Source of the DNA: a virus
Taxonomy: Duplodnaviria > Caudoviricetes
Direction: 5' to 3' (one strand)
IMG/VR virus record: IMGVR_UViG_3300044633_001982
DNA: 64,000 nucleotides
Under the pieces are notes generated by a model, which saw only the letters and a program-made list of their open reading frames with translations, was not told where the DNA came from and did not search any database. Position 1 is the stretch's first letter, and each line of letters begins with the position of its first letter. This document shows positions 9,522 to 49,570 of this stretch, piece after piece. Position numbers and translations under genes: made by a program.

Positions 9522-10520
9522 TTAATGGTTAACATTACCATCACTGTAATAAACAAACCAATAATTAATCATTTCATCTAACATTGTCTCAAATGTGTAA
9601 TCGTGAGACCATCCTGTTGATTTAATTAATTTAGATGAGTCTCCTTTTAAATCGTGTAGTTCTTCAGGCCTTAAAAATTTTTCGTCTTGTGCCACATATT
9701 CTTTATAGTCTAAACCTAATGATGTGAAAACATAATCACAAAGTTCTCTAACTGAATGTGAGATACCTGTGGCACAAACAAAATCATCAGGTTTGTCTAA
9801 TTGTAAAATTTCCCACATTGCTTTAACATAATCTTTGGCGTGTCCCCAATCTCGTGTTGCATCAAGATTACCCAATTTTAACTCATTAGATAGTCCTAAT
9901 TTAATCTTAACAGCTTCTTTACATACTTTATTGGTAACAAAGTTTGTTCCTCTTCTCGGTGATTCATGATTAAATAAAATTCCGTTTGAAATAAACATTC
10001 CGTAAGAATTTCTATAATTACGACAAATATTATAACTAAATACTTTGGAACAACCGTATGGTGATACAGGATTTAAAGGAGTAGTTTCTCTTTGAAACCC
10101 ATCTGAATCTATAGTGTTACCAAACATCTCAGATGATGACGCTTGATATATTTTGGTATTTGGTTTAATTAATTTAACCGCTTCTAATAAATTTAAAGTA
10201 CCTATACCTGTAACATTAGCGGTGTAAATTGGTTGGTCAAAAGATATTCTTACGTGGGATTGTGCTGCAAGATTGTAAATTTCATCCGGCATTACTTTTT
10301 GGATAATACTAATTAATGATGAAAGGTCAGTCATATCGGCGTAATGTAAAATTATTTTATCATATACGTTTTGTAATCTTGATGTTTGATTTTCGGAAAC
10401 TGAATTACGTTTAAGTGTTCCATGTACCTCATACCCCTTTTCTAATAAAAGTTCAGAAAGATATGACCCATCTTGACCATTAATACCTGTAATTAATGCA
10501 ATTTTTTTATCCATTTTCAT
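9522..10520 (-). CDS. gmd: GDP-mannose 4,6-dehydratase
   Basis: ALITGINGQDGSYL, YNLAAQSHV, QASSSEMFG, SPYGCSK, FNHESPRRG, RDWGHAKDYV. Confidence 0.97.
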   Translation of the reverse strand: MKMDKKIALITGINGQDGSYLSELLLEKGYEVHGTLKRNSVSENQTSRLQNVYDKIILHYADMTDLSSLISIIQKVMPDEIYNLAAQSHVRISFDQPIYTANVTGIGTLNLLEAVKLIKPNTKIYQASSSEMFGNTIDSDGFQRETTPLNPVSPYGCSKVFSYNICRNYRNSYGMFISNGILFNHESPRRGTNFVTNKVCKEAVKIKLGLSNELKLGNLDATRDWGHAKDYVKAMWEILQLDKPDDFVCATGISHSVRELCDYVFTSLGLDYKEYVAQDEKFLRPEELHDLKGDSSKLIKSTGWSHDYTFETMLDEMINYWFVYYSDGNVNH

Positions 10521-11661
10521 TTATAATTTTACTTATTTTTTGAATTTCATTAATCGTTAAATCTTGATGATTTGGAATGTAAAATCCGTATTTATCAATT
10601 AATTCGCAATTTTTTAAATCAATTTTTCCGTAGTTTTCATACCACATTGGTTTATTTGACATGTTACCTGCAATAAGTGGTCTAACTTCAATATTATTTT
10701 TAATTAATTCATTAACAATTTTTTCTTTATTTTTGTTAACAATTGGTAACGCAAAATTTGATATAAAATTATTATCATCAATTTTTATATTTAAATCATT
10801 CACATTAATTAAATCTAAATAATTTTTAAAATTTTGATTTCTAATTAAACAATATTTGTCTAATTTATCAATAGCTCTAAGACCAATAAACGCTTGTAAA
10901 TCTGTAGACCGTAGATTGAACCCAGGTACGTAAAAGTTATATAAAGACGTGAAGTCATCTACAGAATATTTTTCACGTAATGATTTTTGTTTTTCTAACG
11001 GTAAATCTCTATCCCAACCGTGACTTCTCATCATTAATAATAAATGATAAAAATCTTCATCATTAGTATTAATAAACCCGCCTTCAATTGTACTTAAATG
11101 GTGTCCAAAATACATTGAAAAAAATGACGCAAACCCAAAAGAACCTAAATAATCGTTTTTATATTTTGACCCCATACTCTCACACACATCTTCAAATAGT
11201 ACAACGTCATATTTTTCACATAAACTTATAATTTTTTCCATGTCAGGAACTAAACCTAATGGAGATACTAAAATAAATGATGATGGGGACTCGGTTTTAA
11301 AAATATGTTCTAAGTGTTCTAAGTCACAAGACAAATCTTCTAAATTACAATCACACATAATTGGTTCCATACCAAGTAATATTGGAGAACTAACGTCTGT
11401 TGCCCAACTTAATGATGGAATTACTATTTTTTTATTTTTAATTTTTTTTGAATATAAAAAAGCGGCTAATGAAAGTAATATTGACGAGGACCCTGAATTA
11501 ACAAAAACCGAATATTTTGTCCCAATTTTTTTCGCCCATTTTTTTTCTAATTCAATAGTTAAATCACCTTTAGTTAACCTAGGTATCTCATCTTGAGATA
11601 ACCATTCTACAAGATACTTAATATCTTCTTTATTTATCGTATCACTTACTAATTTTATCAT
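10507..11661 (-). CDS. colD: ColD-like GDP-4-keto-6-deoxymannose 3-dehydratase (DegT/DnrJ family)
   Basis: FVNSGSSS, EDVCES, YFGHHLSTIEGG with His where aminotransferases have the Schiff-base Lys, RSHGWDRDLP, PGFNLR; lies between gmd and an fcl-like gene. Confidence 0.8.
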   Translation of the reverse strand: MIKLVSDTINKEDIKYLVEWLSQDEIPRLTKGDLTIELEKKWAKKIGTKYSVFVNSGSSSILLSLAAFLYSKKIKNKKIVIPSLSWATDVSSPILLGMEPIMCDCNLEDLSCDLEHLEHIFKTESPSSFILVSPLGLVPDMEKIISLCEKYDVVLFEDVCESMGSKYKNDYLGSFGFASFFSMYFGHHLSTIEGGFINTNDEDFYHLLLMMRSHGWDRDLPLEKQKSLREKYSVDDFTSLYNFYVPGFNLRSTDLQAFIGLRAIDKLDKYCLIRNQNFKNYLDLINVNDLNIKIDDNNFISNFALPIVNKNKEKIVNELIKNNIEVRPLIAGNMSNKPMWYENYGKIDLKNCELIDKYGFYIPNHQDLTINEIQKISKIINENG

Positions 11662-12550
11662 AAACTTGTTTTATACCTTTTTCAAAAGGTAATGGACTAA
11701 AATTGGGAAGTAAATTATTTAACTTGTCTATTGACACATCTTTTCGGTATTGTCCATCAGGTTTTGTAGAATCAAAATTAATTTTAATATGTCCTAAGTT
11801 TAAAGAGTTTAACGAAATTTCAGCAATTTCTCTGATTGATAAATTTTCTTTATTTGCCACATTAAAACTTTCATATATATTCTTTGTTAAACATTCATTA
11901 ATAACCCAAGCTAAATCATCGGAATGCATAAATTGTCTTAATGGATTTCCTGAACCAAATAAAGTGATTTCACTTTGTGATAGTTTATTGGCTTGAATAA
12001 TCTTTTCAAGTAAGGCTGCGACAAAATGACTGTTTTCTCCCATTTTATCATTTTCACCGTATAAATTACAAGGTATTAAATATTGATAATTAGTACCATA
12101 TTGTTTGTTTAAAGAATCTATTTGGACTGCCAAACATCTTTTTGAATAACCGTAGGAAAAGTTAGTAATTGTTGGGGGACCTAAATGTAAATCAGTTTCA
12201 TTCATTGGATATTTTTCTACTGAATCAGGATAAATACACGTTGATAAAATTCCAATAAATTGAGTAACCCCAAATTTATATGAATACTCGACCATGTAAG
12301 TATTCATCTTAATATTTTCAATAAAATAATCGTATGGTTTTTTTATGTTGTCAATAATGCCCCCAACCTTAGCTGCTAAATGAACTATTTTGGTTGGTTT
12401 ATGTGTTTCAAACATACGTTTAACATCGTCTTCTTTAGTTAAATCATAATCTTTTGATGAAACGTATATTGAATGAGGTAGTAATTTTAAAAGTGATTTT
12501 CCTACCATTCCTGAACCACCAGTTATTAAAATTATTTCCTTATCTTTCAT
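11642..12550 (-). CDS. fcl: GDP-L-fucose/colitose synthase (Fcl/ColC-like reductase)
   Basis: LITGGSGMVG, HLAAKVGGI, STCIYP, YGYSKR, PCNLYG, GSGNPLRQF, DGQYRK. Confidence 0.9.
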   Translation of the reverse strand: MKDKEIILITGGSGMVGKSLLKLLPHSIYVSSKDYDLTKEDDVKRMFETHKPTKIVHLAAKVGGIIDNIKKPYDYFIENIKMNTYMVEYSYKFGVTQFIGILSTCIYPDSVEKYPMNETDLHLGPPTITNFSYGYSKRCLAVQIDSLNKQYGTNYQYLIPCNLYGENDKMGENSHFVAALLEKIIQANKLSQSEITLFGSGNPLRQFMHSDDLAWVINECLTKNIYESFNVANKENLSIREIAEISLNSLNLGHIKINFDSTKPDGQYRKDVSIDKLNNLLPNFSPLPFEKGIKQVYDKISK

Positions 12551-13211
12551 TTAAATAATCTATAATTTTATGCCTATCAATATCCATTAATCCCCTTTTG
12601 GTGTCAAATTCCCACTCAGTCTCCTCAAATCGTTTTAAAGTTTCTAATTTGTCCGATGTTAATTCATCATGTAATCTTATGTGATTAATAGATAAATCTA
12701 TTTGTTTAAATAAACTTAAACCATCTAACATAAAATATAAATAACCGTCATAAAAAACTGATTTAGATACACACCCAATAATGTCTAAAATACTTTTCGA
12801 TATTATTGGGAAATACCAAGTCTCGTTATGTGGGAATGCCGGATTATGATGTAAACAAATGAATTCACCCGAATACGGTTTAACTAAAGTATCCCATTTA
12901 TCAGTAATTATTGTCATATCGTCATTGGCACAAAATATAAATTCCCCTGAAGATTTTTCATAAAGTTCATTATAGAATTCATTAAGAGATGCGTACCCAT
13001 TTTTTCGCCCCGAAACAACTATAGTTATAAAATTAAATTTATCATATGATTTTAAACCATTAATTGTTTCAGTATCATCGTCGTCTACTTTAACTAATAT
13101 TTCAATATTATTTATATCATCACATTTATCAATTAAAGAATTTAATGTTTGTAATAAAAATTCGATTCTACCCCTACTTGGTAGAATTACACTAATTAAT
13201 TTTTTATTCAT
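12540..13211 (-). CDS. Glycosyltransferase, GT2-like
   Basis: SVILPSRGR, VKVDDDD, CANDDM. Confidence 0.7.
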   Translation of the reverse strand: MNKKLISVILPSRGRIEFLLQTLNSLIDKCDDINNIEILVKVDDDDTETINGLKSYDKFNFITIVVSGRKNGYASLNEFYNELYEKSSGEFIFCANDDMTIITDKWDTLVKPYSGEFICLHHNPAFPHNETWYFPIISKSILDIIGCVSKSVFYDGYLYFMLDGLSLFKQIDLSINHIRLHDELTSDKLETLKRFEETEWEFDTKRGLMDIDRHKIIDYLNER

Positions 13212-13510
13212 TTTTTATCAAAAAAAATATTGTCGTTTATTGCTTTATCGTCAATAAAAATATCGGCATTTAATTTAATTCCAACTCTTAATTTATGATA
13301 GTTAACTCCCCAATCTTTTAATTGGGAAGATGTAATATCCTCCCAATTAATTCCGGTTGTTGAACCTCTTGCAGTGTCTATAAGAATGGTATTTCCATCA
13401 TTATAAAGTTTATTTACTAAATTAATTCTTTCATGAAATGGTTTTGCGTTTAAATAATCACCGTCTGTATTGGTACAAAGAGTACCATCTAAATCAAAAC
13501 AATAAATCAT
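13208..13510 (-). CDS. Minimal capless HAD-family phosphatase
   Basis: FDLDGTLC motif I, TARG motif II, FIDDKA motif IV. Confidence 0.75.
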   Translation of the reverse strand: MIYCFDLDGTLCTNTDGDYLNAKPFHERINLVNKLYNDGNTILIDTARGSTTGINWEDITSSQLKDWGVNYHKLRVGIKLNADIFIDDKAINDNIFFDKK

Positions 13511-14347
13511 TTATTTTAAAATATTATTAACTTTTCTTAGTTTTTTTGCAATTGGTTTTTCAGTTTCGTATACCACTTTAACACCATCTCCCATAATTGA
13601 CTCAATTTTTCTAATTCCTGAAACTAATTCCTCAGAGTGTTCAATTGACGCCGCTTGGTCTGAACCATACATAGTTCTATCTTTTGTAATATGATACTCA
13701 ATACATTCAGAGCCTATTGATACTGCCGCAAAACAAGGAATTAATCCACTTGCGTGATTTGAAAAACCTATTTTATAATTTGGGTATTTTTGTTTTAAAG
13801 TTTTAATATAGTTAATATTAAGTTCTTCATCTTTAGTTGGATAGGTACTTGTACACGCCAATACGTACTCAACATTTTTTAAAATGGAAAGTGCCATATT
13901 AATTTCTTCTTCAGTTGACATCCCTGTTGAAACAATTACAGGTTTTCCTGTCTCATTAATACCATTTAAAAATTCTCTGTCGGTTAATAAGGCGGACGCT
14001 ATTTTATGGTACTTAACGTTACAATTTTCATTTATCAATTTTAAACTATTTAAATCCCAACATGAGACAATAAAATCCAAACCTAAATTATTAGAAAACG
14101 ATTCTAAAATTTTGTATTGTTCAATACTAAATTCTAAACCCATTTTTTGTTCACGATTAGTTGTCCCCCAAGGAGATTCTCTATATGCATCTAATTCTTC
14201 TTTAGTATATACTGAGTCAATATCTCTTTTTTGAAATTTGACTGCATCACATCCTGATGATTGTGCTTTAATAATTAATTCTTTGGCCAAATCTAAATCA
14301 CCATTATGATTAATTCCGATTTCTGCAATAATGTACGTTTTTTTCAT
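13511..14347 (-). CDS. neuB: N-acetylneuraminate synthase-family (NeuB-like) ulosonate synthase
   Basis: IIAEIGINHNGD, DAVKFQKR, KIASA, STGMS, CTSTYP, GFSNH, IEYHIT, DQAASIE. Start reassigned to MKKTY at 14347. Confidence 0.92.
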   Translation of the reverse strand: MKKTYIIAEIGINHNGDLDLAKELIIKAQSSGCDAVKFQKRDIDSVYTKEELDAYRESPWGTTNREQKMGLEFSIEQYKILESFSNNLGLDFIVSCWDLNSLKLINENCNVKYHKIASALLTDREFLNGINETGKPVIVSTGMSTEEEINMALSILKNVEYVLACTSTYPTKDEELNINYIKTLKQKYPNYKIGFSNHASGLIPCFAAVSIGSECIEYHITKDRTMYGSDQAASIEHSEELVSGIRKIESIMGDGVKVVYETEKPIAKKLRKVNNILK

Positions 14348-14370
14348 TTTATTTGTTTTTTTTATTTTTA

Positions 14371-14949
14371 TTATTTTTTGAAAATTTGAGATTCGACTAA
14401 TTCTAATATTGTATGACCTAAAATCATATGACACTCTTGTATTCTTGCGGTATCATTTGAAGGAATGATAATTGATATATCTGAAATATCTTTAATTTCT
14501 CCCCCATCATTACCCAAAAAAGAAATAACGTGACCAAGTTCATTTTCAATAGATTTAATTGCCTTTATTACATTTTTAGATTTACCTGAAGTTGAGAATG
14601 ATATTAACACATCACCTTCATTAAAAGATGATTTAATCTCTCTTGAAAAGATTTCATCATATGAGTAGTCATTTGCTACTGCAGTTAAATATGAAAAATT
14701 AGAACCTAATAAAACAACTTCTAAAGGGTTCCTATCAAAATAGAATCGACCACTTAATTCCGCAGATAAATGTTGTGCATCTGAAAAACTACCACCATTA
14801 CCACAAAAATAAACTTTGTTACCTCTACCGTAACATTCGATTATTTTATTTGCAACTAACTCAATATTTTTTAACATGTTAACATCGTTTAAAATATTTT
14901 GTTTAAGTTCAATAGATTTTTTAATATTTTTAATAATTTTTTCTACCAT
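14371..14949 (-). CDS. gmhA: GmhA-type phosphoheptose isomerase (SIS domain)
   Basis: CGNGGSFSDAQHLSAEL, TAVANDY, GDVLISFSTSGKS, RIQECH. Confidence 0.88.
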   Translation of the reverse strand: MVEKIIKNIKKSIELKQNILNDVNMLKNIELVANKIIECYGRGNKVYFCGNGGSFSDAQHLSAELSGRFYFDRNPLEVVLLGSNFSYLTAVANDYSYDEIFSREIKSSFNEGDVLISFSTSGKSKNVIKAIKSIENELGHVISFLGNDGGEIKDISDISIIIPSNDTARIQECHMILGHTILELVESQIFKK

Positions 14950-14953
14950 TTTT

Positions 14954-15841
14954 TTATTTTTGACAAATTGAAATTATTGTATCTGTTAAATTATTTTTAT
15001 TTAAAATTTTAAAATACTCTCGGTCAATTGACCCCCCATTAATCTCTTTAAAAATATTTTGACCACCTGGTTTACCGTCCTTTAACCAATATAAATGATT
15101 TGATAACCCATATCTTTGTAAACCATTTATTTTTATATTTTTAAATCCTGAGATTTTTAAATATTTTTTTAAACTGTTCTTTGTGTGAAGAATTAAATGT
15201 TCACTCCAAAAAGTATATTCTTTAAATGATTCCAAATTATACAATGTAATCAAAGCGTCATTTGCATTTGGTACTTCAATTATCAAATACCCATCAGGAT
15301 TAAGTATTGTATGTATTTTTTCTAAAATTTCAAGTGGGTTAGGAACATGTTCAAAAACATGAAATAAAGTAATTACGTCAAATTTTATATTATTATTAAT
15401 AATTTCTTCAATTGATTCAAATATGGTATAATTTAATTTTCTTAAATTATCTGCGATATTTTTTTGTGGCTCTAAACCACTAACATTGGTTGTCACTTGT
15501 TTTGCCATATCTAATACTCCACCTAAACCACACCCAAAATCTAAATAAGATTTATTTTCAATAAGATGGGATATTGATTTAAATCTTCTAATATCATCTC
15601 CGTATGTCAGTTCTAAAGCTTCATCTCTAGTTTTAGATTCCCAATATGAAAAATTTTCCATTTCTGTATAATGCTCATTTGATACGTGGTCTAAATTTTT
15701 AAGAAAAATAACTCCTGATTTTTTACACCTCATTACAGGTATGTTTTTGTTATCCCTTACATATGGATAAAATTCCTCAATCTTATTTTTATCGATTATT
15801 TTAAGGTCTATTAATTCTAAATATAAATTATTGTTTACCAT
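14954..15841 (-). CDS. Class I SAM-dependent methyltransferase
   Basis: LDFGCGLGG, FDVITLFHVFEHV, IIEVPN. Confidence 0.88.
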   Translation of the reverse strand: MVNNNLYLELIDLKIIDKNKIEEFYPYVRDNKNIPVMRCKKSGVIFLKNLDHVSNEHYTEMENFSYWESKTRDEALELTYGDDIRRFKSISHLIENKSYLDFGCGLGGVLDMAKQVTTNVSGLEPQKNIADNLRKLNYTIFESIEEIINNNIKFDVITLFHVFEHVPNPLEILEKIHTILNPDGYLIIEVPNANDALITLYNLESFKEYTFWSEHLILHTKNSLKKYLKISGFKNIKINGLQRYGLSNHLYWLKDGKPGGQNIFKEINGGSIDREYFKILNKNNLTDTIISICQK

Positions 15842-16653
15842 ACTGTTTTACCTCCATCAATTATTAAATTAGTTCCTGTCATATAAGAACTCGCGTCAGA
15901 ACACATAAAAACAATTGCCCCTTTGTATTCGTCAATATGGGCCATTCTTCCCATTGGGATAATATTACTTAGTTTATTTACAAAATCAATAGGATGGTCA
16001 TTATACACACCTGTTGGGCTTAAACAATTGACTCTTATATTGTTTTTTGCGAAATAAGTTGATAAGTATTTTGTCATCCCGACTACCGCCCATTTAGCTG
16101 CGGAATATGTTATTGGTTTAACGTTCTGTTCTTCTTCTTTTTTTGACTCATCACGATATATTCTTTGGTCAGGAGCAATTACACCTAAATCTGATGAAAT
16201 ATTTAAAACAACTCCCCCTCCTGTTTTTAACATCTTATTACAAATAACTTGAGAAGTCATAAACGTTCCATTTATAATTGCATCAATCCCTTCTTTAAAG
16301 TAAGATTCACTCATAACCTCAAATCTTGTTTCAGGAGTTAAACTATTATCATCTTTTGTTACCTTTGGGTCTTTAGCCGCATTATTAATTAATATGTCAA
16401 TTCTATCATATTTTTCACTAACAACTTCAATAGTGTCTTTTTTAGTGACATCCATATATTCTATACTGATATTTTCTATACCATATTTTTCTGAAAGATA
16501 CTGATACTTTTCTTTTAAATTATCCATATTAACATCTGTCAAAATTACTTTTGCTCCATACTCTAAGAGAGCTTCGGCGTGTTTTGGACCCAATAAACCA
16601 CCAGCACCTGTTATAAGTGCAATTTTACCATCTAAATCAAATAAGTTTCTCAT
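15835..16653 (-). CDS. Short-chain dehydrogenase/reductase (PtmA-like)
   Basis: ITGAGGLLG, LINNAA, YSAAK, IRVNCLSP, GTNLIIDGG. Confidence 0.9.
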   Translation of the reverse strand: MRNLFDLDGKIALITGAGGLLGPKHAEALLEYGAKVILTDVNMDNLKEKYQYLSEKYGIENISIEYMDVTKKDTIEVVSEKYDRIDILINNAAKDPKVTKDDNSLTPETRFEVMSESYFKEGIDAIINGTFMTSQVICNKMLKTGGGVVLNISSDLGVIAPDQRIYRDESKKEEEQNVKPITYSAAKWAVVGMTKYLSTYFAKNNIRVNCLSPTGVYNDHPIDFVNKLSNIIPMGRMAHIDEYKGAIVFMCSDASSYMTGTNLIIDGGKTVW

Positions 16654-17420
16654 ATAATTTTATTAATTTTTTTTAACGTTTCGGATATGTAATTTACTTC
16701 GTTACATTCAACTTCTCTCGCGAGTTGTAAAATTACATTTTCATTATAGTTAATTTTTTTTAATATTTCAAATATTACTTTAAAATTTGTATCCCCAAAT
16801 CCAAACAATTTTGTTTCTCCTTGATAATTTCTATCTTTAATGTGAATATTTTTAATTTTATTACCAAAATACTGTATTAATTCTTGGTGATTAATATTTT
16901 CTTTATAAAAAGATGTAAAATTACCAGTGTCGTAGGTAATAAAAAAATTATCCATTCTATTCACAATTTTCATAACAATTTCTTTTTTACATTCAAATTC
17001 AAAACAAAAATCTATGTTTGGATATTTTACTGAAATAGGTACAAAATTCTTTAAAAATTTATATCTAATTGATATATCAGTAACTGAACTATCCTCAAGT
17101 AAAGGAATGACAACTTTTTTAATTTTTAATTCAGTCATTCTATTTAAAACAGGAATTAAATTTTTATTTAAAAATTTTTTTTTATAAAAATTTGTGTTAA
17201 CCATAGTGTCGACACATACGGATAAAATATTTTTAGGAAGATTATTATTAGTAAAAAATGGATTGGTTAAATTATCTTTTGGGGTAATTAACCACTCAAT
17301 ACCTGATATACCAATATGTTTAATATGATTAAATTCATTTTCCCAAGTATCTATTGGAAACTCTTGCATTTTATTATCGATAGGTTTACTTAACCTACCC
17401 TGTAATATCCCAATTTTCAT
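16650..17420 (-). CDS. Sugar-phosphate isomerase/epimerase (xylose-isomerase-like TIM barrel)
   Basis: IGILQGRLS, FEFE, YDTGN, HIKDR, GDTNF. Confidence 0.75.
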   Translation of the reverse strand: MKIGILQGRLSKPIDNKMQEFPIDTWENEFNHIKHIGISGIEWLITPKDNLTNPFFTNNNLPKNILSVCVDTMVNTNFYKKKFLNKNLIPVLNRMTELKIKKVVIPLLEDSSVTDISIRYKFLKNFVPISVKYPNIDFCFEFECKKEIVMKIVNRMDNFFITYDTGNFTSFYKENINHQELIQYFGNKIKNIHIKDRNYQGETKLFGFGDTNFKVIFEILKKINYNENVILQLAREVECNEVNYISETLKKINKII

Positions 17421-17830
17421 AATAACTCAACAAATTCAATTATATTATTTTCAGGGTCTTTTGCGAAAAAAACTTTAACGGTTTTTTCATCTGAAATTAT
17501 TGGATTATTTATCACTGATAAACCATTGTCTATCATTATTTTGTGTAAATTTTCAGAATCTTTTACTGTTAGTGCGAAATGAGTATACCCATTAGAAAAC
17601 AAATTTTTTTCAATTAACTCACAATTTTTAAAAAATAAAAGTTCAACAATTGTAGAGTTATCTTTACCTAACTTAATAATTCTTGGGGACAATTCTTTAG
17701 AATTTAATATATGGTTTAAAAAGTGTCCACTTTCAATTTTATCATACATTATATCTAATCCTAAAATTTTATGATAGAACCAAATCATTCTATCGATATC
17801 ATTTACTACAATTCCAACGTGTCTAAACAT
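17417..17830 (-). CDS. VOC/glyoxalase-family protein
   Basis: HVGIVVND...FYHKILG, THFALTV, DPENNIIEFVE. Confidence 0.85.
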   Translation of the reverse strand: MFRHVGIVVNDIDRMIWFYHKILGLDIMYDKIESGHFLNHILNSKELSPRIIKLGKDNSTIVELLFFKNCELIEKNLFSNGYTHFALTVKDSENLHKIMIDNGLSVINNPIISDEKTVKVFFAKDPENNIIEFVELL

Positions 17831-19143
17831 TCTATTAAACTTTCTTTTAATACGTTAATACCTTCAATTAGTGCGTCATCTGAAATAGTAAGTGGGGGAC
17901 CTATTTTTAATGTCCCTGATTGAGTTCTAATTGATAACAATCCTTTTCTCATTGCAATTTCAATTAGTCTATCAACAAAATCAATATTATTACCGTCAGG
18001 TGATTCTATAAAAACTCCAGCTAACAAACCTTGGCAATTTACTTTCTTAACGTATTTTGACATTTGATGTTTCCATTCTAATAACTCAGACTCCATTAAT
18101 TTGCCCTTCCTCATTGATTCATTAATTAAATCATTTTCAATAAGGAATTTAACAGAGGCCTCAGACGCCGCAACCGCAACTGGATTCCCACCGTGAGTAC
18201 TATTATAAGACATATCAGTATTAATAATTTTATTGTTTGTTATGACACAAGATAGTGGTAATGACGATGAAATGCCTTTAGCACAAACAATAATATCAGG
18301 AATAATTTCAAAATGTTCATATGCAAAAAGTTTACCAGTTCTACCAAATCCTGATTGAATTTCATCTATGATTAATAAAACTTCATTTTTGGTACACCAT
18401 TCTCTTAGTAATTGTATGTATTCTTTAGACGCAAATTCCGCGGACCATCCTTGATATGGTTCCATTATGACTGCGGAATACTCATTAGGGTTGAGGTCTT
18501 TAAAATATTTTTCAAATAATTCTTTAGGAGATAAATTTTCATTTTTTATTGTGATTGAGTCAGGGTATGGTAAATGTGTTACGTAAGTTTTAACAGGTAT
18601 CCATTCTTGTGATTTGAATTTTCCCCCAACCATTGCGGAACCCATTGTTTTACCGTGATAACCATTATTAAATGAAATAACTTTGTTCTTATGGTTATAC
18701 TTAATTGACATCTTAATTGCACATTCAACTGATTCAGAGCCAGTTGATAAAAATAAAACCTTATCAAATTTTTCAGGGGTTATTTCAACAAGTAGTTTTG
18801 AAAACTCAGACCTTTCTTTTGTTGGGTAGTAGTAGGCGTTCAATAAGTTCCTATTTGTTTTTGAGATAATCGCCTCTTTTACTTTAGGGTTTGAGTGACC
18901 AACATTTGTAACAAATATTGAAGATGTAAAATCAATCCATTTATTACCTGAAACATCATAAACCGAATAATCAAGTGCCGAATCCCAAACAATTGGTAAT
19001 TGGTCATTCATTGAATTAGGTTCGTAATTAATACAATCCTGTATTATTTTGATAGTTTCCGGTGATGGAATTTTAGTTTGAATACATCTATTTTTTGTTT
19101 TTATTTTTACACATTCTATTGGGGTTTTTGAAAACTCATACAT
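17806..19143 (-). CDS. Class III PLP aminotransferase
   Basis: DVSGNKWIDF, NVGHSNP, STGSESVE, YHGKT, DEIQSGFGRTG, PDIIVCAKGIS, STHGGNP. Confidence 0.93.
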   Translation of the reverse strand: MYEFSKTPIECVKIKTKNRCIQTKIPSPETIKIIQDCINYEPNSMNDQLPIVWDSALDYSVYDVSGNKWIDFTSSIFVTNVGHSNPKVKEAIISKTNRNLLNAYYYPTKERSEFSKLLVEITPEKFDKVLFLSTGSESVECAIKMSIKYNHKNKVISFNNGYHGKTMGSAMVGGKFKSQEWIPVKTYVTHLPYPDSITIKNENLSPKELFEKYFKDLNPNEYSAVIMEPYQGWSAEFASKEYIQLLREWCTKNEVLLIIDEIQSGFGRTGKLFAYEHFEIIPDIIVCAKGISSSLPLSCVITNNKIINTDMSYNSTHGGNPVAVAASEASVKFLIENDLINESMRKGKLMESELLEWKHQMSKYVKKVNCQGLLAGVFIESPDGNNIDFVDRLIEIAMRKGLLSIRTQSGTLKIGPPLTISDDALIEGINVLKESLIECLDTLEL

Positions 19144-19807
19144 ATTTTTTATTTTTAATTAGATATTCAATATACTCAAAATCTTCTATTGTGTCAATTT
19201 CTTGAGTTAAATTTGTTACATAAGAATATATTTTTTTCCCGTATAAGTTATCCCCTTTCATAAAAATTTCTGGTTTTACAATATCAATATAACCATTAGG
19301 GACATATGTTTTTGGATACGATTGTCTAGGATTATTTTGGTCCATATTTTCTACTATTGGATACCATAGTCCTCTTTTTTTAATAAAAAATTTATACGCG
19401 GATTCAGACATTTCATGTCCTGACCTAAGACTTGTAACCAAATGTTTATTTTTTTCAAATTCAAAAATTGCATCATCTAAAATATGTGGTTTTATAAGAG
19501 GGGTTGTGGCTCTTAAATGAACAATTGGGGAATTTATATTGGTAACATTACAAAAATGTTTAAATGCATCAATATCTAAAGAATTATCTTGACATAGTTC
19601 TAAAGGTCTATCAATAATTTTTACTCCATATGATAAAGAAATTTTTTTAATATCCTGACAATCTGTTGAGACATAAATTTCATTAATGTTACTTGTTTTT
19701 TTGGCGGCTTCAATTACGTAACCAATTAGTGGAACTCCATTTAATTCTTTAATATTTTTTTGAGGGACACCCTTACTTCCGCCCCGAGCTAAAATTAAAC
19801 AAACCAT
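19136..19807 (-). CDS. neuA: CMP-ulosonate (acylneuraminate) cytidylyltransferase
   Basis: ILARGGSKGVPQKNIKELNGVPLI, VSTD, RATTP, PNGYID, EIDTIEDF. Start taken as MVCL at 19807. Confidence 0.92.
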   Translation of the reverse strand: MVCLILARGGSKGVPQKNIKELNGVPLIGYVIEAAKKTSNINEIYVSTDCQDIKKISLSYGVKIIDRPLELCQDNSLDIDAFKHFCNVTNINSPIVHLRATTPLIKPHILDDAIFEFEKNKHLVTSLRSGHEMSESAYKFFIKKRGLWYPIVENMDQNNPRQSYPKTYVPNGYIDIVKPEIFMKGDNLYGKKIYSYVTNLTQEIDTIEDFEYIEYLIKNKKYV

Positions 19808-19808
19808 A

Positions 19809-20603
19809 TTATTTTTCCGCAATTATAATAAATTCAGTACCATCACAATTAAATTCACCTAACTCCCAATCTTGAAAAAAGATAATATTTTTAAAACCAA
19901 CCGACAACAACAAATTTTTTATTTGTTCTTTATTATAAATTTTTAAAATTACCGACGAATTACTCTTTTTATTTTCATCCCTTGAAATAAATGTTTTATC
20001 CCACGTTAAAAAATTATTTGAGTCGTCAAATTTACAATCCCAAAGAGAATATTGCCATGGGTCAGGATAATCAAACTCATCCCAAATTTTACCACCCATT
20101 TTAATAGAATCTAAAATTTTTTTACACCCATCGAGTTCAATTATTATCTTACCATTTTTTTTCAAAGTTTCATAAACATCCTTTAATAATTTAATTTCAA
20201 AACCTTCGGATATTGGTTCACAAAACTGAAAAGATAAATCTGACATATAACATAAATCAATATTAGAAAAATTATATTTTTTTAAATTTAAAAAATTATC
20301 ACATATATTTTTAACATTTTCTATGTTTAAATCACGTCTCCAATTTTCCGCAAAATTAAATCTGTCTTCACTTATTTCAAATCCGTACCCAAAATTGAGT
20401 AAATTTTTTAAATTCAAATTATATAATAATTTTGAATTACCTGAACCCAATTCTAAAATATTAATTTTTTCTTTAAAAAAAGAATTTATAAATTTTAAAT
20501 TTTTTTCACAATCGTTTAATTTATTTTGACGATATTTTTCCATTTCGTTTTTATCGTAAAATATTTCATACCCATTATAAGCTGTTAAATTTTTGTGTGA
20601 CAT
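19809..20603 (-). CDS. Class I SAM-dependent methyltransferase
   Basis: ILELGSGNS motif I; LKKNGKIIIE. Confidence 0.75.
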   Translation of the reverse strand: MSHKNLTAYNGYEIFYDKNEMEKYRQNKLNDCEKNLKFINSFFKEKINILELGSGNSKLLYNLNLKNLLNFGYGFEISEDRFNFAENWRRDLNIENVKNICDNFLNLKKYNFSNIDLCYMSDLSFQFCEPISEGFEIKLLKDVYETLKKNGKIIIELDGCKKILDSIKMGGKIWDEFDYPDPWQYSLWDCKFDDSNNFLTWDKTFISRDENKKSNSSVILKIYNKEQIKNLLLSVGFKNIIFFQDWELGEFNCDGTEFIIIAEK

Positions 20604-20606
20604 TTT

Positions 20607-21344
20607 TTATAAGATATTAGAAGTATTAAAAATTTTCTTTAAATGAGACATATCACTTAGATTTTGAATCTCGACATTTATTTTTTCGGCACTTTGTTTA
20701 ATTATTTCAAAATCGGTTAATATCTCATCAAGATGAGGATTAAAACTTGAGTAGTTGGTAAAGTCTGGTGAAACATACCCTAATGAGTAGTTTAACTCAA
20801 CTCCACAAATATATATTTTTTTACACCCAAGTAATATCGCTAAAGCCAACATGTGTACCGCAACTGTACTACCTGTACTATATATTTTTTCGTAATTTGT
20901 ATAATTTTTTAATAATTCTTGTATTGTTAAAAATTTTGGATTTAAATTATGACATTTATTTGGACAATTAGTACAAGTTTCTCCATTAAAATGTCTTTGG
21001 TCATATCTAAAGTAGTTCGTGTCTACATTTTCAACTATCCATTCCCAAGGGGTGGTGTCAACAGAATCGGCATGTACAACAGTAGTATTTGGAAATTTTT
21101 TAAAAGTTTCTACCATTGAATGTATAGTTTGGTGGGAATTTGCAAAAACCCAATAATTAGGGACTATTTTTGTCATAATGTTAATTTCATTACAACAAAT
21201 TTTAATGTAATCATTATTACTTTCTAAAATGTTTAAATAATTCCCCAAAGAAGGTCCTGTACCACAGATTATTGCCGTTTTACCAACTTCTTTATTAATT
21301 AATTTTGAAATATCTTGATTAGTCATTGTAGTATAATAATCCAT
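20607..21344 (-). CDS. Maf/DUF115- or GT42 (Cst)-like ulosonate transferase
   Basis: AIICGTGPSL, CCNE, STGSTVAVHMLALAILLGCKKIYICGVE; adjacent to the NeuA/NeuB cassette. Confidence 0.65.
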   Translation of the reverse strand: MDYYTTMTNQDISKLINKEVGKTAIICGTGPSLGNYLNILESNNDYIKICCNEINIMTKIVPNYWVFANSHQTIHSMVETFKKFPNTTVVHADSVDTTPWEWIVENVDTNYFRYDQRHFNGETCTNCPNKCHNLNPKFLTIQELLKNYTNYEKIYSTGSTVAVHMLALAILLGCKKIYICGVELNYSLGYVSPDFTNYSSFNPHLDEILTDFEIIKQSAEKINVEIQNLSDMSHLKKIFNTSNIL

Positions 21345-22149
21345 TATTAAATTTTACATTTATTTTTTTCCACTCATTTTCATACACATTATTAAATTCT
21401 TTTTCACCTCTTGGGCCAAACCAAATATTAGGGACAAAAACTTTGTTATCTTTATTTTGGTTTAAAAAAGACCCCCACCAAGAAAAAGATGAGTTTGACA
21501 TTATATTATTTTTACAAAGACTAATCATCCATAGGTCTTCATAATCGTCATTATCTTCAACAAATATAACTTTATCAGATTTAATATTATTTTTTACCCA
21601 AGTAAAATCATCTGAAAAAATAAAAAATGTTTCAGTTTCAGGTAAAAGACTCATACAGTGTTTAATATATGAAATATCTATAACTGGTAGTATATCAGAT
21701 ATTGTTAGATAATCACCTCTTCTAATATGAATTGATGTCGTATTATTAGATAATAATTGAGGGTATTTTTTAAATATTTTTTCTTTAAATTCTTCAGAAG
21801 GTAAGAATAAATCAATTATTTCTTTGTCATACCCTAAAAAATTTTTACTACTTTGAAAATACCCATTAAACCCAACTGACTCGTCCCAATTAAAATTCAA
21901 GTTAGGTTCATTCCAACTATACTCACTAACTATTTTTTTAACATTTATATTATTAACAAAATTAATTTTTTTAAAAATATTATTAATATAATGTGTGGGT
22001 TGTTTTGCTTTACCCATTGGGGTGTATGCTTGTGGTAAAAAAACCGATGGTATTTTATTTTTTAACCCCTGAGAATACGAATGTGCAATTTGAAACATTT
22101 GGTTACCTAAACCTCCTTGTAACAATGCGGTAGATATTATATTATCCAT
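21319..22149 (-). CDS. GT11 alpha-1,2-fucosyl/colitosyltransferase
   Basis: GGLGNQMFQ, SIHIRRGDY, IFSDD, SNSSFSWWGSFL. Confidence 0.93.
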   Translation of the reverse strand: MDNIISTALLQGGLGNQMFQIAHSYSQGLKNKIPSVFLPQAYTPMGKAKQPTHYINNIFKKINFVNNINVKKIVSEYSWNEPNLNFNWDESVGFNGYFQSSKNFLGYDKEIIDLFLPSEEFKEKIFKKYPQLLSNNTTSIHIRRGDYLTISDILPVIDISYIKHCMSLLPETETFFIFSDDFTWVKNNIKSDKVIFVEDNDDYEDLWMISLCKNNIMSNSSFSWWGSFLNQNKDNKVFVPNIWFGPRGEKEFNNVYENEWKKINVKFNNGLLYYND

Positions 22150-22957
22150 TAGTTTTTAATTTATTATAAATTATTGAGTCAGGTAAAATGTAAGATTTAG
22201 ATTTTTCGTAATTTTCAATTACAAAAGGTAACATTTTTTCATATAAATCTTTATTACAACTTGTTAAAATATCTTCTATTTCTTCTATTTTGTCAAAACA
22301 AATCATTCCTTTAGTGTTAAAAAAATCACCAATCGATGGACACCCCCAATAAATCGGGATAGTCCCAGTTGTAAAACAGTCTATTAATTTTTCAGTAAAC
22401 CAGTAATCTCTTTTACAGTTTTCAATTACTATTGAAAATCTATAATCTTTTAAACCTTCTATTTTTCTATCAATTGGTGAATAACCTCTACCATAAACAT
22501 CCATTTTATCTTTATATCTATCTATAACCAAATGACGTAATTGATGTCCGTCAGTTTGTCTTTTATTTGAAGATATAATTGATATGTCTTTTGATTTTTT
22601 ATAAACTTTTTGTTGTTCAGGGTCAATCCAACAACATCCAAAAGGTACTAATTCAAAATTCTTATTTAAATCAAGTAATGATTTTTCATGTGTAAAAACT
22701 TTATTAAAATTTTGGTGATTATTTAAAATATAGTTGTAGGTATTTGAGTTAATACACATTGGTTCAATTAACCAAGCATAGTTTTTTTCATAATTATCTA
22801 TTTTTTCATGTCCTAACATGAAATCTGTATATACACATGGAATACTTGAGTCTAAATTTGACCTATCCCAAAAAAACCTATTGTCTTTTTGAAAATCGCT
22901 ACAATAACCCAATACGCTATGTGAAAAAGTAATATCTTTTAAATTTATTTTATCCAT
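22142..22957 (-). CDS. GT10-like alpha-1,3/4-fucosyltransferase
   Basis: YRFSIVIEN...YWFTEKLIDCFTTGTIPIYWG. Confidence 0.8.
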   Translation of the reverse strand: MDKINLKDITFSHSVLGYCSDFQKDNRFFWDRSNLDSSIPCVYTDFMLGHEKIDNYEKNYAWLIEPMCINSNTYNYILNNHQNFNKVFTHEKSLLDLNKNFELVPFGCCWIDPEQQKVYKKSKDISIISSNKRQTDGHQLRHLVIDRYKDKMDVYGRGYSPIDRKIEGLKDYRFSIVIENCKRDYWFTEKLIDCFTTGTIPIYWGCPSIGDFFNTKGMICFDKIEEIEDILTSCNKDLYEKMLPFVIENYEKSKSYILPDSIIYNKLKTNG

Positions 22958-35626: not shown

Positions 35627-36469
35627 ATGGTTGAAATTTTTGATGGTTACTGTGAAGGATTGAAAGGAGGTCACTTTTCTAGTTACAGAAAAAACTTAGG
35701 AAATAAATTATTTATTTATTCTGTTAGTAGACTTATTGCCGATGAATTAAATTATGATTTAATTGTTCCTGATAATTCATTAATACGTAGAGAAGAATTA
35801 AGTGTTGGTCAATATGTTGAGCAAGTATTCCCATTTAAATCCATTACCGGAAAAGAGTCAATTGAAGGTCCAGTCATCTCAATTGGGGACACTGATGTAT
35901 TAACATTGAATACTGTCGAAAAAATGGTAGACCATTGTCGGGGACATAAAATTATTTCCGCCTCCTATTTTTCTAAGTACGATTATATTAAACCGTACAA
36001 AGAAAAAGTTAGAAATTTTCTTTCAGAAATAGTATTACCAAAAAGAAATGATGACGATTTGGTTTTGATGTTAAGAAATAGTAGAGACGATGGTAGATTT
36101 GTATTGCCTGATGAATATTACCTTAACATTTTGGAAAAAGAAAATTTTAAAAATTTATACGTTTCTTTTGACCATGTCTATAACCATAAAAGTATTTTAG
36201 ATAAATTACAAATTTATAATCCAAAATATATTGAGGGTTCAATTTTAGATGTGTTTAAAGAACTAACATCATTTAATAAAATAATTGCTTGTCAAGGTAC
36301 ATTTTCATTTTGGGTATGTTTCTTATCAAATGCGAGTAAAATATATTGGCCGGTCACTAACGATGGGCCAAATTCAAACAATAAAAATTTTGGAACTCAT
36401 GTTAATTTAAAAGTTGATGATGAAGACCGATATGTTCACATTAAAATTGATGACATTTATAAAAAATGA
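35627..36469 (+). CDS. Divergent GT11-like transferase
   Basis: NLGNKLFIY, LMLRNS in place of HxRRGD, IIACQGTFSFWVCFLS. Confidence 0.55.
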   Translation: MVEIFDGYCEGLKGGHFSSYRKNLGNKLFIYSVSRLIADELNYDLIVPDNSLIRREELSVGQYVEQVFPFKSITGKESIEGPVISIGDTDVLTLNTVEKMVDHCRGHKIISASYFSKYDYIKPYKEKVRNFLSEIVLPKRNDDDLVLMLRNSRDDGRFVLPDEYYLNILEKENFKNLYVSFDHVYNHKSILDKLQIYNPKYIEGSILDVFKELTSFNKIIACQGTFSFWVCFLSNASKIYWPVTNDGPNSNNKNFGTHVNLKVDDEDRYVHIKIDDIYKK

Positions 36470-37455
36470 AGACTATAAGAATAAGTAGAGCTAATTTTCC
36501 AGGTGTGGGGAATTTTTCATGGATGAATTTCTTTTATGAAATATTATCCAAAAAATATAATGTAATAATAGATTCTAAAAATCCTGATTTGGTTATTTAT
36601 ACTAACCAATTTTACAGAGAAAACGAATTAGATTTTTACACTAACGAAATTGTTAAAGGTATTCATGAATACAATGATAACGTAAAAAAAATATTCATAA
36701 GTGGTGAGGCAAGACCTGATTTCTTATCTCATTTAAATAAAGGGGAAAACTATTACGCTTTAGGATATGAACACCATGACCATGACAGATATTTAAGGTT
36801 CCCAACATATGTTTTAGACGCGCATGTACTCCATAATGAAGGAGGTCTATTTGAAAGTAATTTTGGTTGGTTAACCAAACCAAAAAAATACGAAGATATT
36901 AAACTAATAAAAAAACATTTTTGTAGTTTAGTTCAAGCAAGTTTTAATCCCGATAGAGACCAATTTTTTAATATTGTGGAAAAGTATCATTATATTAAAA
37001 GTTCAGGTCCGTATCGACAAACAATACCTGATTCAGAAACCTTAAATCCTCACAAATATCATAACTATTCCAATAAAGATTATATGGGAAAAATTGACGG
37101 GTTAACCTATAGGGATAAAATTAATTTTTTCTCAGACTGTACATTCAACATGGCTTTTCAATATACTAATACGGATTATCTAACTCAAGAAAAAATAATA
37201 CATGCATTCGCTTCTAATTCAATTCCAATATTTTATGGTAACCAATACATTGAAGAAGAAGGATTTAATCCTGAGTCATTTATCAATGCTCACAAATTTA
37301 AAAATTTTGATGAATTAGTCGATGAATTAAATACAATATATTCTGATAATAATAAATTAAAATCTTATTTTGAATCTCCTATTTTTAATGAAAATAAATT
37401 ACCAATTTATTTCGATGAGGATTACATTTTAGATTTTTTTAGTAAAATTATTTAA
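36466..37455 (+). CDS. GT10 alpha-1,3/4-fucosyltransferase (FutA-like)
   Basis: NPDLVI, ISGEARPDF, YLRFP, FCSLV, YLTQEKIIHAFASNSIPIFYG, FNPESFIN. Confidence 0.85.
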   Translation: MKTIRISRANFPGVGNFSWMNFFYEILSKKYNVIIDSKNPDLVIYTNQFYRENELDFYTNEIVKGIHEYNDNVKKIFISGEARPDFLSHLNKGENYYALGYEHHDHDRYLRFPTYVLDAHVLHNEGGLFESNFGWLTKPKKYEDIKLIKKHFCSLVQASFNPDRDQFFNIVEKYHYIKSSGPYRQTIPDSETLNPHKYHNYSNKDYMGKIDGLTYRDKINFFSDCTFNMAFQYTNTDYLTQEKIIHAFASNSIPIFYGNQYIEEEGFNPESFINAHKFKNFDELVDELNTIYSDNNKLKSYFESPIFNENKLPIYFDEDYILDFFSKII

Positions 37456-48846: not shown

Positions 48847-49557
48847 TCAATTTGACTTTTTAGTTTTAGATAAATAAAGTTCATTTATGAATTTCCAATT
48901 TACCGCATCCCAAAAATTTGTAATATATTCGTCTCTTTTATTTTGATATTTTAAATAATATGCATGTTCCCATAAATCTAACCCTAAAATTGGGAACCCA
49001 CCTCTGTCAAATATATTCATCAATGGATTGTCTTGGTTTTGAGTAGACATCACTTTTAATTTACCACTTTTTGTTATTACTAACCATATCCATCCAGAAC
49101 CAAATCTTTTTTTTGCAACAGACTCAAACCTTTCTTTAAATTCTCTATAAGAACCAAAATCTTTTTTAATTTTTTCTAAAATTTCACCGTATGGTTTTTG
49201 AGGTGTTGGAGATAACATTTTCCAAAAAAGTGCGTGATTAAATGCTCCACCCGCATTATTTCTAATTACGGTATTATATTTTGAAATTTGTTTAACAATA
49301 TTTTCTAACTCAACATCACCGTAATCTCTTTTTCGTAACGCTGAGTTTAATTTTTTTACGTACCCTTTATAATGTTTTTGATAATGAAACTTCATAGTTT
49401 CAGGGTCAATAAACCTACGAAGAGATGCATAACCATACGGTAATTTATCGATACCTATGGTTTTCATTTCATTGATAAAATACTTTGTTTCAGGTAATAC
49501 TATATCACCTGTTATTTTTTTCTGTAAAGATTCTGATAATAAATTTAATGATTTCAT
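48847..49557 (-). CDS. sod: Fe/Mn superoxide dismutase
   Basis: LPYGY, HYQKH, NHALFW, FGSGW, NQDNP, DLWEHAYY. Start reassigned to MKSL at 49557; TATTTATT at 49562-49569. Confidence 0.95.
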   Translation of the reverse strand: MKSLNLLSESLQKKITGDIVLPETKYFINEMKTIGIDKLPYGYASLRRFIDPETMKFHYQKHYKGYVKKLNSALRKRDYGDVELENIVKQISKYNTVIRNNAGGAFNHALFWKMLSPTPQKPYGEILEKIKKDFGSYREFKERFESVAKKRFGSGWIWLVITKSGKLKVMSTQNQDNPLMNIFDRGGFPILGLDLWEHAYYLKYQNKRDEYITNFWDAVNWKFINELYLSKTKKSN

Positions 49558-49570
49558 CAATAATAAATAC

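Follow-up and report, generated by a model that had tools for sequence, protein, structure and literature searches.

A block of eleven genes on the minus strand of a virus-derived DNA stretch (positions 13208-21344 of the 64,000 nucleotides (nt) analysed from IMG/VR record IMGVR_UViG_3300044633_001982, hereafter the window) reads as the phage copy of a widespread, uncharacterised pathway to a cytidine monophosphate (CMP)-activated ulosonic acid, built by way of phosphorylated sugars. We put the probability of this reading at about 0.5 when it includes heptose-7-phosphate (heptose-7-P) as the substrate and a ten-carbon (C10) backbone in the product. A phosphate-route, isomerase-coupled pathway as such is a much safer claim, which we hold to be very probable. 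The window comes from a large myovirus; its GC content is low (~28%) and its markers are a tail sheath, a family B DNA polymerase, PhoH and a dUTPase. The eleven open reading frames (ORFs) of the block overlap one another by 4-26 nt or are separated by gaps of 0-23 nt, as expected for a single operon. Seven related IMG/VR phage contigs retain the gene set and its order at 45-88% protein identity, and the block is therefore conserved and not a chance assembly. A megablast search of the block against GenBank phages gave no match.

As we infer the pathway, from the heptose-7-P substrate and C10 backbone to the sequence and sites of tailoring and the acceptor, a GmhA-type isomerase would produce D-glycero-D-manno-heptose-7-P from sedoheptulose-7-phosphate (sedoheptulose-7-P). 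A NeuB-family synthase that lacks the SAF domain would condense this aldose phosphate with phosphoenolpyruvate (PEP) to give 3-deoxy-dec-2-ulosonate 10-phosphate, and a minimal HAD phosphatase (mini-HAD) would take the terminal phosphate off the ulosonate phosphate. The sugar acid would be oxidised by a short-chain dehydrogenase/reductase (SDR; hydroxyl to ketone) and epimerised by a TIM-barrel epimerase. A class III aminotransferase, assisted by a VOC protein, would set an amino group onto the ulosonate carbonyl, and two methyltransferases would decorate the sugar. NeuA would form the CMP-sugar, and an MptE/Maf-like enzyme would transfer it, probably to a glycan or protein whose synthesis involves the glycosyltransferases on the flanks.

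We assigned the genes of the block by Pfam and NCBIfam profile searches, which recovered all eleven ORFs of the first-pass annotation at the same coordinates and confirmed their families. The synthase gene (13511..14347; PF03102, 202 bits) lies in an ORF that extends to a GTG at 14434; the ATG at 14347 is the likelier start and gives a protein of 278 amino acids (aa). We observed the expected catalytic motifs (AEIG.NH, KFQ, KIAS, STG, TSTYP, SNH, E.H and SDQ) and no C-terminal SAF domain, the model match stopping at position 277 of 329. Scores on the NCBIfam equivalog models were below cut-off (NeuB, 228 versus 399; PseI, 158 versus 340), and the best match in the PDB was 6ncs, a Leptospira-type protein of 290 aa. 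In a NeuB tree that did not include BT1714, the characterised 2-keto-3-deoxynononic acid 9-phosphate (Kdn-9-P) synthase, the phage enzymes fell in a clade of 33 (SH-aLRT 99). This clade is composed of cassettes with NeuA, class III aminotransferase and VOC genes, and is distinct from the Streptomyces, Melainabacteria and Acidobacteria clades. SAF-less NeuB proteins of ~278 aa were very common in metagenomes; in the literature, SAF-less NeuBs form an ‘environmental’ group of unassigned function (PMC8208679). After the KFQKR motif, proteins of the short-NeuB family share a conserved basic loop, RESPWGTTNREQK. By position only, and not by structural alignment, this loop maps to the alpha2-beta2 region of human NANS, which is said to favour a phosphorylated substrate (PMC8208679). 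With a NeuB of the aminotransferase/VOC clade and an adjacent GmhA-type isomerase, HAD phosphatase and CMP-synthetase, the block belongs among the GmhA-coupled cassettes of SAF-less NeuB.

We surveyed 80 bacterial and archaeal loci retrieved with the phage NeuB, clustering the neighbouring ORFs and annotating representatives. A 165-aa HAD protein that matched the KdsC and Kdn-9-P-phosphatase models followed NeuB in 46 of the 80 loci, and a SIS isomerase gene lay within 10 kb of NeuB in 27. In seven loci (L013, L022, L031, L041, L045, L046 and L056), a single ORF directly beside NeuB joined an N-terminal HAD of the KdsC/Kdn-9-P-phosphatase type to a C-terminal GmhA domain. Six of these fusions (354-364 aa) were confirmed with NCBIfam, and the seventh (L056, 552 aa) by BLAST only. 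On the GmhA model, the fused domains scored between 62 and 186 bits, and four of the six exceeded 160. A Syntrophomonadaceae locus (L062) held the minimal set HAD-SIS-NeuB-NeuA. The fusions and the HAD genes after NeuB indicate that isomerase, synthase and phosphatase act together, as do KdsD, KdsA and KdsC in the pathway to 3-deoxy-D-manno-octulosonic acid (Kdo). By the same Kdo-like logic, the fusions and the minimal set make the product of the isomerase the likeliest NeuB substrate. The core sequence proposed at first pass, from SIS isomerase through NeuB and HAD phosphatase to NeuA, was thus borne out in cellular genomes.

The mini-HAD gene (13208..13510, 100 aa) directly follows NeuB in the window and in the seven related phages. 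Its product carries a DxDGT motif, and an alignment with homologues conserved all four HAD motifs; D6, D8, R48, G49, K79 and D88 were invariant across eight homologues, found in phages, in an archaeon of the Thermoplasmatales and in a bacterium of the Omnitrophota. The HAD proteins beside the cellular homologues scored 84-98 bits on the Kdn-9-P phosphatase model NF058599. The phage protein falls outside this KdsC/BT1713 C0 HAD family (NF058599/TIGR01670), matching only TIGR01689, weakly, and having an AfhF-like fold: its structural model (predicted local distance difference test (pLDDT) 90) had AfhF of phage HY126 as its best PDB match (32% identity, template-modelling (TM) score 0.73). AfhF is a Mg-dependent phosphatase that takes the terminal phosphate off arabinose-1,5-bisphosphate (PMC13326640). 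The 100-aa mini-HAD thus stands in the phage where cells have the 165-aa KdsC-type HAD. That the window encodes a dedicated phosphatase together with the synthase implies a phosphorylated intermediate. The resemblance to AfhF also led us to consider a role in DNA hypermodification, which we rejected as very improbable, the transferase being Maf-like and the flanking genes encoding glycan glycosyltransferases.

The isomerase gene (14371..14949; TIGR00441, 171.5 bits) encodes a SIS protein that scored 157 bits against Burkholderia pseudomallei GmhA (2xbl), with the GNGGS, NDY and STSGKS motifs intact. Residues H, E, Q and H stand at what we take to be the Zn-ligand positions of GmhA. The strict TIGR00441 cut-off (209) exceeds the phage score, and was itself passed by just 1 of 14 control genomes. 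The 80 closest cellular homologues (51-58% identity) came nearly all from Bacteroidota and belong to canonical guanosine diphosphate (GDP)-heptose operons, adjoining HddC (68/80), GmhB (63/80) and HddA; a single one of the 80 was near NeuB. SIS trees placed the phage GmhA clade with these Bacteroidota operon GmhAs (support 99 and 95), and the SIS protein of L062 with Firmicutes GmhAs of canonical operons (98). The phage protein keeps 54 of the 65 columns conserved in Bacteroidota GmhAs, including all catalytic and phosphate-binding motifs. Its identity is only 36-41% with those SIS proteins of the cassettes that are GmhA-like, and 25-30% with those that are divergent. By these sequence criteria, we consider the phage isomerase a real GmhA. 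Because it is closer to the operon GmhAs than to the cassette SIS proteins, the phage lineage seems to have filled the isomerase slot of the cassette with a genuine host-type GmhA. The heptose/C10 option of the first-pass annotation is strengthened by this grouping and by the retained catalytic residues, though it stays short of proof. In the GmhA literature we found no residue-level list of substrate C5-C7 contacts from which to read chain-length specificity.

A search for neuC, gmhB and hddA beyond the window, which covered five incomplete records of related phages (one being 75% complete at 219 kb), found none of them. PF00483, TIGR00213 and PF00288 (covering NTP-transferase, GmhB and HddA-type GHMP kinase) had no match in the five records, and the NeuC-type epimerase PF02350 had none there or among the scanned window ORFs. 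PfkB (PF00294) had no match in the four closest records and one fragment in the distant fifth (G005). With no kinase, GmhB or nucleotidyltransferase in the four closest phage records, heptose-7-P has no other visible use there. Within the window, ~50 of the ~65 ORFs of at least 90 aa were scanned with Pfam or PHROGs, and NeuC, PseB/C, LegB/C, GmhB, HddA/HldE and HddC were not found; the absence of these genes from the block, noted at first pass, held across the scanned ORFs and in the five related records. No PseB/C- or LegB/C-type dehydratase plus DegT aminotransferase lies within 13208-21344. In cells, GmhB and HddA were likewise not found in Roseburia G006, Syntrophomonadaceae G008 and Methanoperedens G010 genomes that carry a cassette SIS gene, in a search whose positive controls (Hungatella G007 and bacterium D16-56 G009) scored 288-296 bits.

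The alternative that survives best is a nine-carbon (C9) pathway of the Kdn type, which we regard as possible but doubtful. The synthase would make Kdn-9-P from mannose-6-phosphate (Man-6-P) and PEP, the HAD enzyme would dephosphorylate it, tailoring would yield an aminated and methylated Kdn, and NeuA would activate it; the GmhA-type isomerase would make Man-6-P from fructose-6-phosphate or be loosely connected to the pathway. Several observations weigh in this direction and against a heptose substrate. Characterised phosphate-route synthases use only Man-6-P or N-acetylmannosamine-6-phosphate (ManNAc-6-P); those assayed from Bacteroides thetaiotaomicron and Prymnesium parvum use Man-6-P, and the assayed NeuB homologues yield Kdn-9-P or N-acetylneuraminic acid 9-phosphate (Neu5Ac-9-P) only (PMC6200933). 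The scores of the cellular phosphatases on the Kdn-9-P model point the same way. Streptomyces, which makes a Kdn teichulosonic acid (PMC11481543), holds SAF-less NeuB members of the same family as the phage enzyme, although the phage clade is separate from theirs. A canonical GmhA-GmhB-HddA operon accompanies a divergent SIS gene of the cassette in both Hungatella G007 and D16-56 G009, so the substrate of the cassette SIS could differ. In about half of the phage NeuB clade, a SIS gene is lacking from the neighbourhood. A long stem (1.15 substitutions per site) leads to the phage GmhA clade, and the protein differs at 11 of the 65 conserved columns, A55F and T85V/F close to motifs among them. 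An approximately unbiased test did not reject a tree in which the phage SIS joins the SIS proteins of the cassettes (P = 0.167).

Set against a Kdn-type route, canonical GmhAs are no more GmhA-like than the phage isomerase and several isomerases of the cassettes, which keep all catalytic motifs and group with operon GmhAs. Roseburia G006 has its own ManA, which would make a second route to Man-6-P redundant there. The phage has a GDP-mannose dehydratase (GMD) gene and no ManC-type gene was found; it would therefore rely on GDP-mannose from the host, and Man-6-P should already be available. A backbone longer than C9 also has a precedent, because a CMP-activated ulosonic acid of this kind was detected by mass spectrometry in Magnetospirillum, with no genes linked to it (bioRxiv 10.64898/2026.04.20.719630); C10 ulosonates are thus not implausible.

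An improbable second alternative is that GmhA is an independent auxiliary gene that boosts GDP-heptose synthesis in the host and came to lie in the block through the clustering of sugar genes, NeuB using a six-carbon precursor made by the host. The grouping of the phage GmhA with Bacteroidota operon GmhAs fits this account, in that a host from Bacteroidota, the likely host phylum, would supply HddA, GmhB and HddC, and the phage GmhA could feed its GDP-heptose synthesis. Such an account is opposed by the position of gmhA between the SDR gene and NeuB, kept in 7 of 7 close phage relatives, and by two arrangements, GmhA next to NeuB and HAD fused to GmhA, that recur across unrelated bacteria and archaea, also in genomes where neither HddA nor GmhB was found. 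Less likely still is an animal- or Leptospira-like route to N-acetylneuraminic acid (Neu5Ac), in which NeuB would turn host ManNAc-6-P into Neu5Ac-9-P and the HAD enzyme would serve as NANP: a NeuB-phosphatase fusion of L. interrogans has been read in this way (PMC3438082), yet we found no ManNAc-6-P supply gene, no PF02350 epimerase in the related records and no acetyltransferase, and there would be no role for GmhA or for the aminotransferase, SDR, TIM-barrel and VOC proteins.

Taken to its full extent, the heptose-7-P reading leads to a scenario that we offer tentatively. A Bacteroidota jumbo phage would make a C10, aminated and methylated 3-deoxy-deculosonic acid from sedoheptulose-7-P with a GmhA captured from a GDP-heptose operon of its host phylum, activate it with CMP, and use it to cap its own fibre glycans together with colitose/fucose-type sugars; the same chemistry would be widespread and unrecognised in bacteria and archaea. 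Our literature searches gave no hit for deculosonic acids, for nonulosonate clusters with a class III aminotransferase or for nonulosonate pathways encoded by phages.

We also assessed the genes predicted to tailor the sugar. The SDR (15835..16653; adh_short_C2, 126 bits) is of the sugar-acid dehydrogenase type, its top NCBIfam models being PRK09186 (163 bits), gluconate 5-dehydrogenase, mannonate oxidoreductase and KduD. We take PRK09186 (CDD) to represent the PtmA flagellin-modification type; on the PtmA equivalog NF050062, the phage protein scored 100 bits against a cut-off of 350. The TIM-barrel protein (16650..17420; AP_endonuc_2, 38 bits) gave a model with pLDDT 94 and fold matches at TM scores of 0.7-0.79. 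Its nearest folds were the UlaE/SgbU L-xylulose/ribulose-5-phosphate 3-epimerases, the 5-keto-L-gluconate epimerase TM0416, psicose 3-epimerases and YcjR. The model therefore folds like the ketose 3-epimerases, which agrees with the epimerase role suggested at first pass. E141, D164 and H193 were invariant in the family alignment. At the fourth metal-binding and catalytic position, where ketose 3-epimerases have Glu, this family seemingly has a near-invariant Gln (Q232), and its chemistry may thus differ from that of a two-base epimerase. We observed the SDR and TIM genes paired in many cellular loci, also without the aminotransferase (as in phage relative L012), which suggests an oxidise-and-epimerise module. 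An equation of the pair with Campylobacter PtmA and PtmF was rejected because it fails for the TIM barrel, PtmF being a 326-aa ‘oxidoreductase’ (PMC4481668).

The class III (omega-type) aminotransferase (17806..19143; PF00202, 295 bits, full length) has GABA, acetylornithine and ornithine transaminases as its nearest solved structures and is 36-44% identical to its counterparts in cellular cassettes. There, the aminotransferase was always found with an SDR or a radical S-adenosylmethionine (SAM)/SPASM enzyme, and usually with a VOC gene. This constant company suggests that oxidation precedes transamination. The VOC metalloprotein (17417..17830; PF00903, 35.6 bits) resembles glyoxalase I and methylmalonyl-CoA epimerase and accompanies the aminotransferase in phage and cellular cassettes. 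Reading the sequence by eye, we observed H4, E63, H84 and E132 at what are presumably the positions of the four metal ligands, which thus appear to be retained.

Two variants bear on these genes. Phage relative L012 (IMGVR_UViG_3300033073_001332) has the cassette MptE-NeuA-TIM-SDR-GmhA-NeuB-HAD without the class III aminotransferase and VOC genes, and its gene content marks it as an apparent natural variant without amination. In phage contigs L008, L010 and L011 and cellular loci L025, L029, L033 and L042, a radical-SAM/SPASM protein stands in place of the SDR, together with an extra radical-SAM enzyme of 480 aa; the two may be an anaerobic dehydrogenase and a C-methylase.

Methyltransferase 1 (MT1; 14954..15841; Methyltransf_23, 93 bits) and methyltransferase 2 (MT2; 19809..20603; Methyltransf_31, 32 bits) are both predicted SAM-dependent tailoring enzymes. 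MT1 had no tblastn match in phage relatives L001-L006 and L012 and had homologues of 25-41% identity in bacterial cassettes. Among the phage relatives, MT2 occurred only in L001 (78%) and L007 (45%); L002-L004 and L006 carry an unrelated Methyltransf_23/11 gene at its position (L002-L004:4755-5453). This turnover among close phages fits a diversification of the final decoration. The CMP-ulosonate synthetase NeuA (19136..19822; PF02348 (CTP_transf_3), 83 bits) belongs to the NeuA/PseF/KdsB family; it has a LARGGSKG motif and scored 102 bits on the PseF model, below the cut-off of 205. The MptE/Maf-like protein (20607..21344), a candidate CMP-ulosonate transferase, is encoded beside NeuA, an arrangement kept in the phage relatives. 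The first pass had called it Maf/GT42-like, and only half of this label stood: the MptE-like domain (PF01973) scored 60.2 bits against a Pfam cut-off of 34.6, while GT42 (CST-I) reached 20.8 bits against 25. Other weak matches were to PseD and to the Kdo transferase WaaZ.

The cassette is of cellular origin and widespread, and is not a phage invention. The phage-type architecture in cells ran SIS-NeuB-(HAD)-TIM-NeuA-AT3-VOC-methyltransferase-(radical SAM)-SDR, where AT3 is the class III aminotransferase. We observed it, for example, in Syntrophorhabdus (L022), Mariprofundaceae (L052), Spirochaetes (L015), Methanoperedens (L042) and bacterium D16-56 (L046). An earlier view of the cassette as peculiar to the phage does not hold, since Syntrophorhabdus, Mariprofundaceae, Spirochaetes and Methanoperedens carry the same gene set.

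Two further arrangements of SAF-less NeuB recurred in the survey. The acidobacterial architecture combines NTP-transferase, epimerase, DegT, epimerase, SIS, NeuB, HAD, thiamine diphosphate (ThDP) enzyme, methyltransferase and GT2 genes. In acidobacterial loci L016, L017, L027, L030, L035-L037, L040, L049, L055, L058, L059, L064-L066, L069, L070 and L077, the NeuB and KdsC-type HAD genes keep company with an FkbM methyltransferase and a ThDP enzyme that resembles acetolactate synthase. These loci have no NeuA gene close by, and their ulosonate may be used without CMP activation. In Melainabacteria/Gastranaerophilales, the order FliO-NeuB-HAD-TPR protein-aspartokinase was fixed (L014, L018-L020, L023, L028, L032, L043, L061, L082, L088 and others); this constant place beside FliO suggests a link to flagella.

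Beside the block, the region 9522-12550 (minus strand) encodes GMD (396 bits), a protein of the DegT family matched best in the PDB by ColD GDP-4-keto-6-deoxymannose 3-dehydratases (202 bits), and an Fcl/ColC-like reductase. The trio looks like a route to GDP-colitose, a 3,6-dideoxyhexose, rather than to fucose or perosamine, and is kept beside the cassette in all close phage relatives. GT2, GT11, GT10, GT25 and GT2/GT4 glycosyltransferases also flank the block. With these transferases and the GDP-deoxyhexose genes on its flanks, the ulosonate is probably one component of a larger glycan. The window holds three fucosyltransferase-like genes, one GT11 and two GT10 (36466-37455, plus strand; 21319-22957, minus strand), consistent with glycans rich in deoxyhexose. 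Elsewhere in the window, an Fe/Mn superoxide dismutase with an N-terminal extension of ~60 residues (48847-49632, minus strand) adjoins an SNF2-type helicase (49571-51328).

As surface sugars, Kdo and the sialic, legionaminic and pseudaminic acids play key parts in recognition, in immunity and in the adsorption of phages. To our knowledge, all known ulosonic acids have eight (C8) or nine carbons. A C10 homologue, if true, would be a new class of natural sugar and would bring a new synthase, CMP-synthetase and transferase for glycoengineering. The phage copy indicates that viruses can carry a whole ulosonate pathway, probably for coating their own particles or remodelling the host surface. It newly contributes a test system of compact size and an argument drawn from the capture of a GmhA of host type; being self-contained, the block is suited to heterologous expression, and the question of its substrate is directly testable.

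Of the known systems, the CMP-Kdn pathway of B. thetaiotaomicron (synthase BT1714) and P. parvum runs from Man-6-P and PEP through Kdn-9-P and Kdn to CMP-Kdn (PMC6200933). The phage cassette shares with it a NeuB-family synthase (PF03102), a dedicated HAD phosphatase and a CTP_transf_3 synthetase, and cellular cassette phosphatases match the Kdn-9-P phosphatase model. It differs in that the phage synthase belongs to a distinct SAF-less clade, that GmhA is wired in and, in some bacteria, fused to the phosphatase, and that the phage phosphatase is an AfhF-like mini-HAD of 100 aa and not KdsC-type. The phage cassette also adds an SDR, a TIM epimerase, a VOC protein, a class III aminotransferase and methyltransferases, and its substrate is possibly a heptose phosphate. 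Unlike the canonical pathways to Neu5Ac, legionaminic acid and pseudaminic acid, it has no SAF domain, no equivalog-level score, no PF02350 epimerase among the scanned window ORFs or in the five related records, and no PseB/C or LegB/C in the cassette.

In the Kdo pathway (KdsD, KdsA, KdsC and KdsB), a SIS enzyme likewise converts a ketose phosphate into an aldose phosphate before PEP condensation, HAD dephosphorylation and CMP activation, and L062 holds exactly this minimal set. The condensing enzyme of our cassette is NeuB-type and not KdsA, its isomerase is GmhA-type and not KdsD (SIS plus CBS), and the expected product is C9 or C10 instead of C8. KdnB of the Shewanella system for 8-amino-Kdo (Kdo8N) is an Fe-dependent alcohol dehydrogenase and not an SDR. 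The phage cassette resembles that system (KdnB and KdnA) in concept, in that a finished ulosonic acid would be oxidised at a hydroxyl and then transaminated. It is not a member of it: no Fe-dependent alcohol dehydrogenase is present in the cassette, which has the SDR instead, and KdnA is DegT-type while the phage aminotransferase is class III. The first pass had misassigned KdnA to class III, whereas the KdnA structure (PDB 5k8b) matches a DegT-type query; the analogy drawn there between KdnB/KdnA and the class III enzyme is therefore one of function only.

As in Campylobacter, where Maf/MptE-like proteins transfer nonulosonates to flagellin, a PF01973 protein is encoded beside a CMP-ulosonate synthetase; the protein here is phage-encoded, is much shorter (245 aa) and matches PseD weakly. 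The cassette differs from the Bacteroidota GDP-heptose operons (HddA-GmhA-HddC-GmhB) in having gmhA beside NeuB and no kinase, bisphosphate phosphatase or nucleotidyltransferase. Its GmhA is nevertheless 51-58% identical to theirs, groups with them and keeps their motifs. The Magnetospirillum compound is di-N-acetylated and O-acetylated and has no genes assigned, unlike the product proposed for the phage; it falls in the same product class, being an alpha-keto acid sugar linked to CMP whose backbone exceeds C9.

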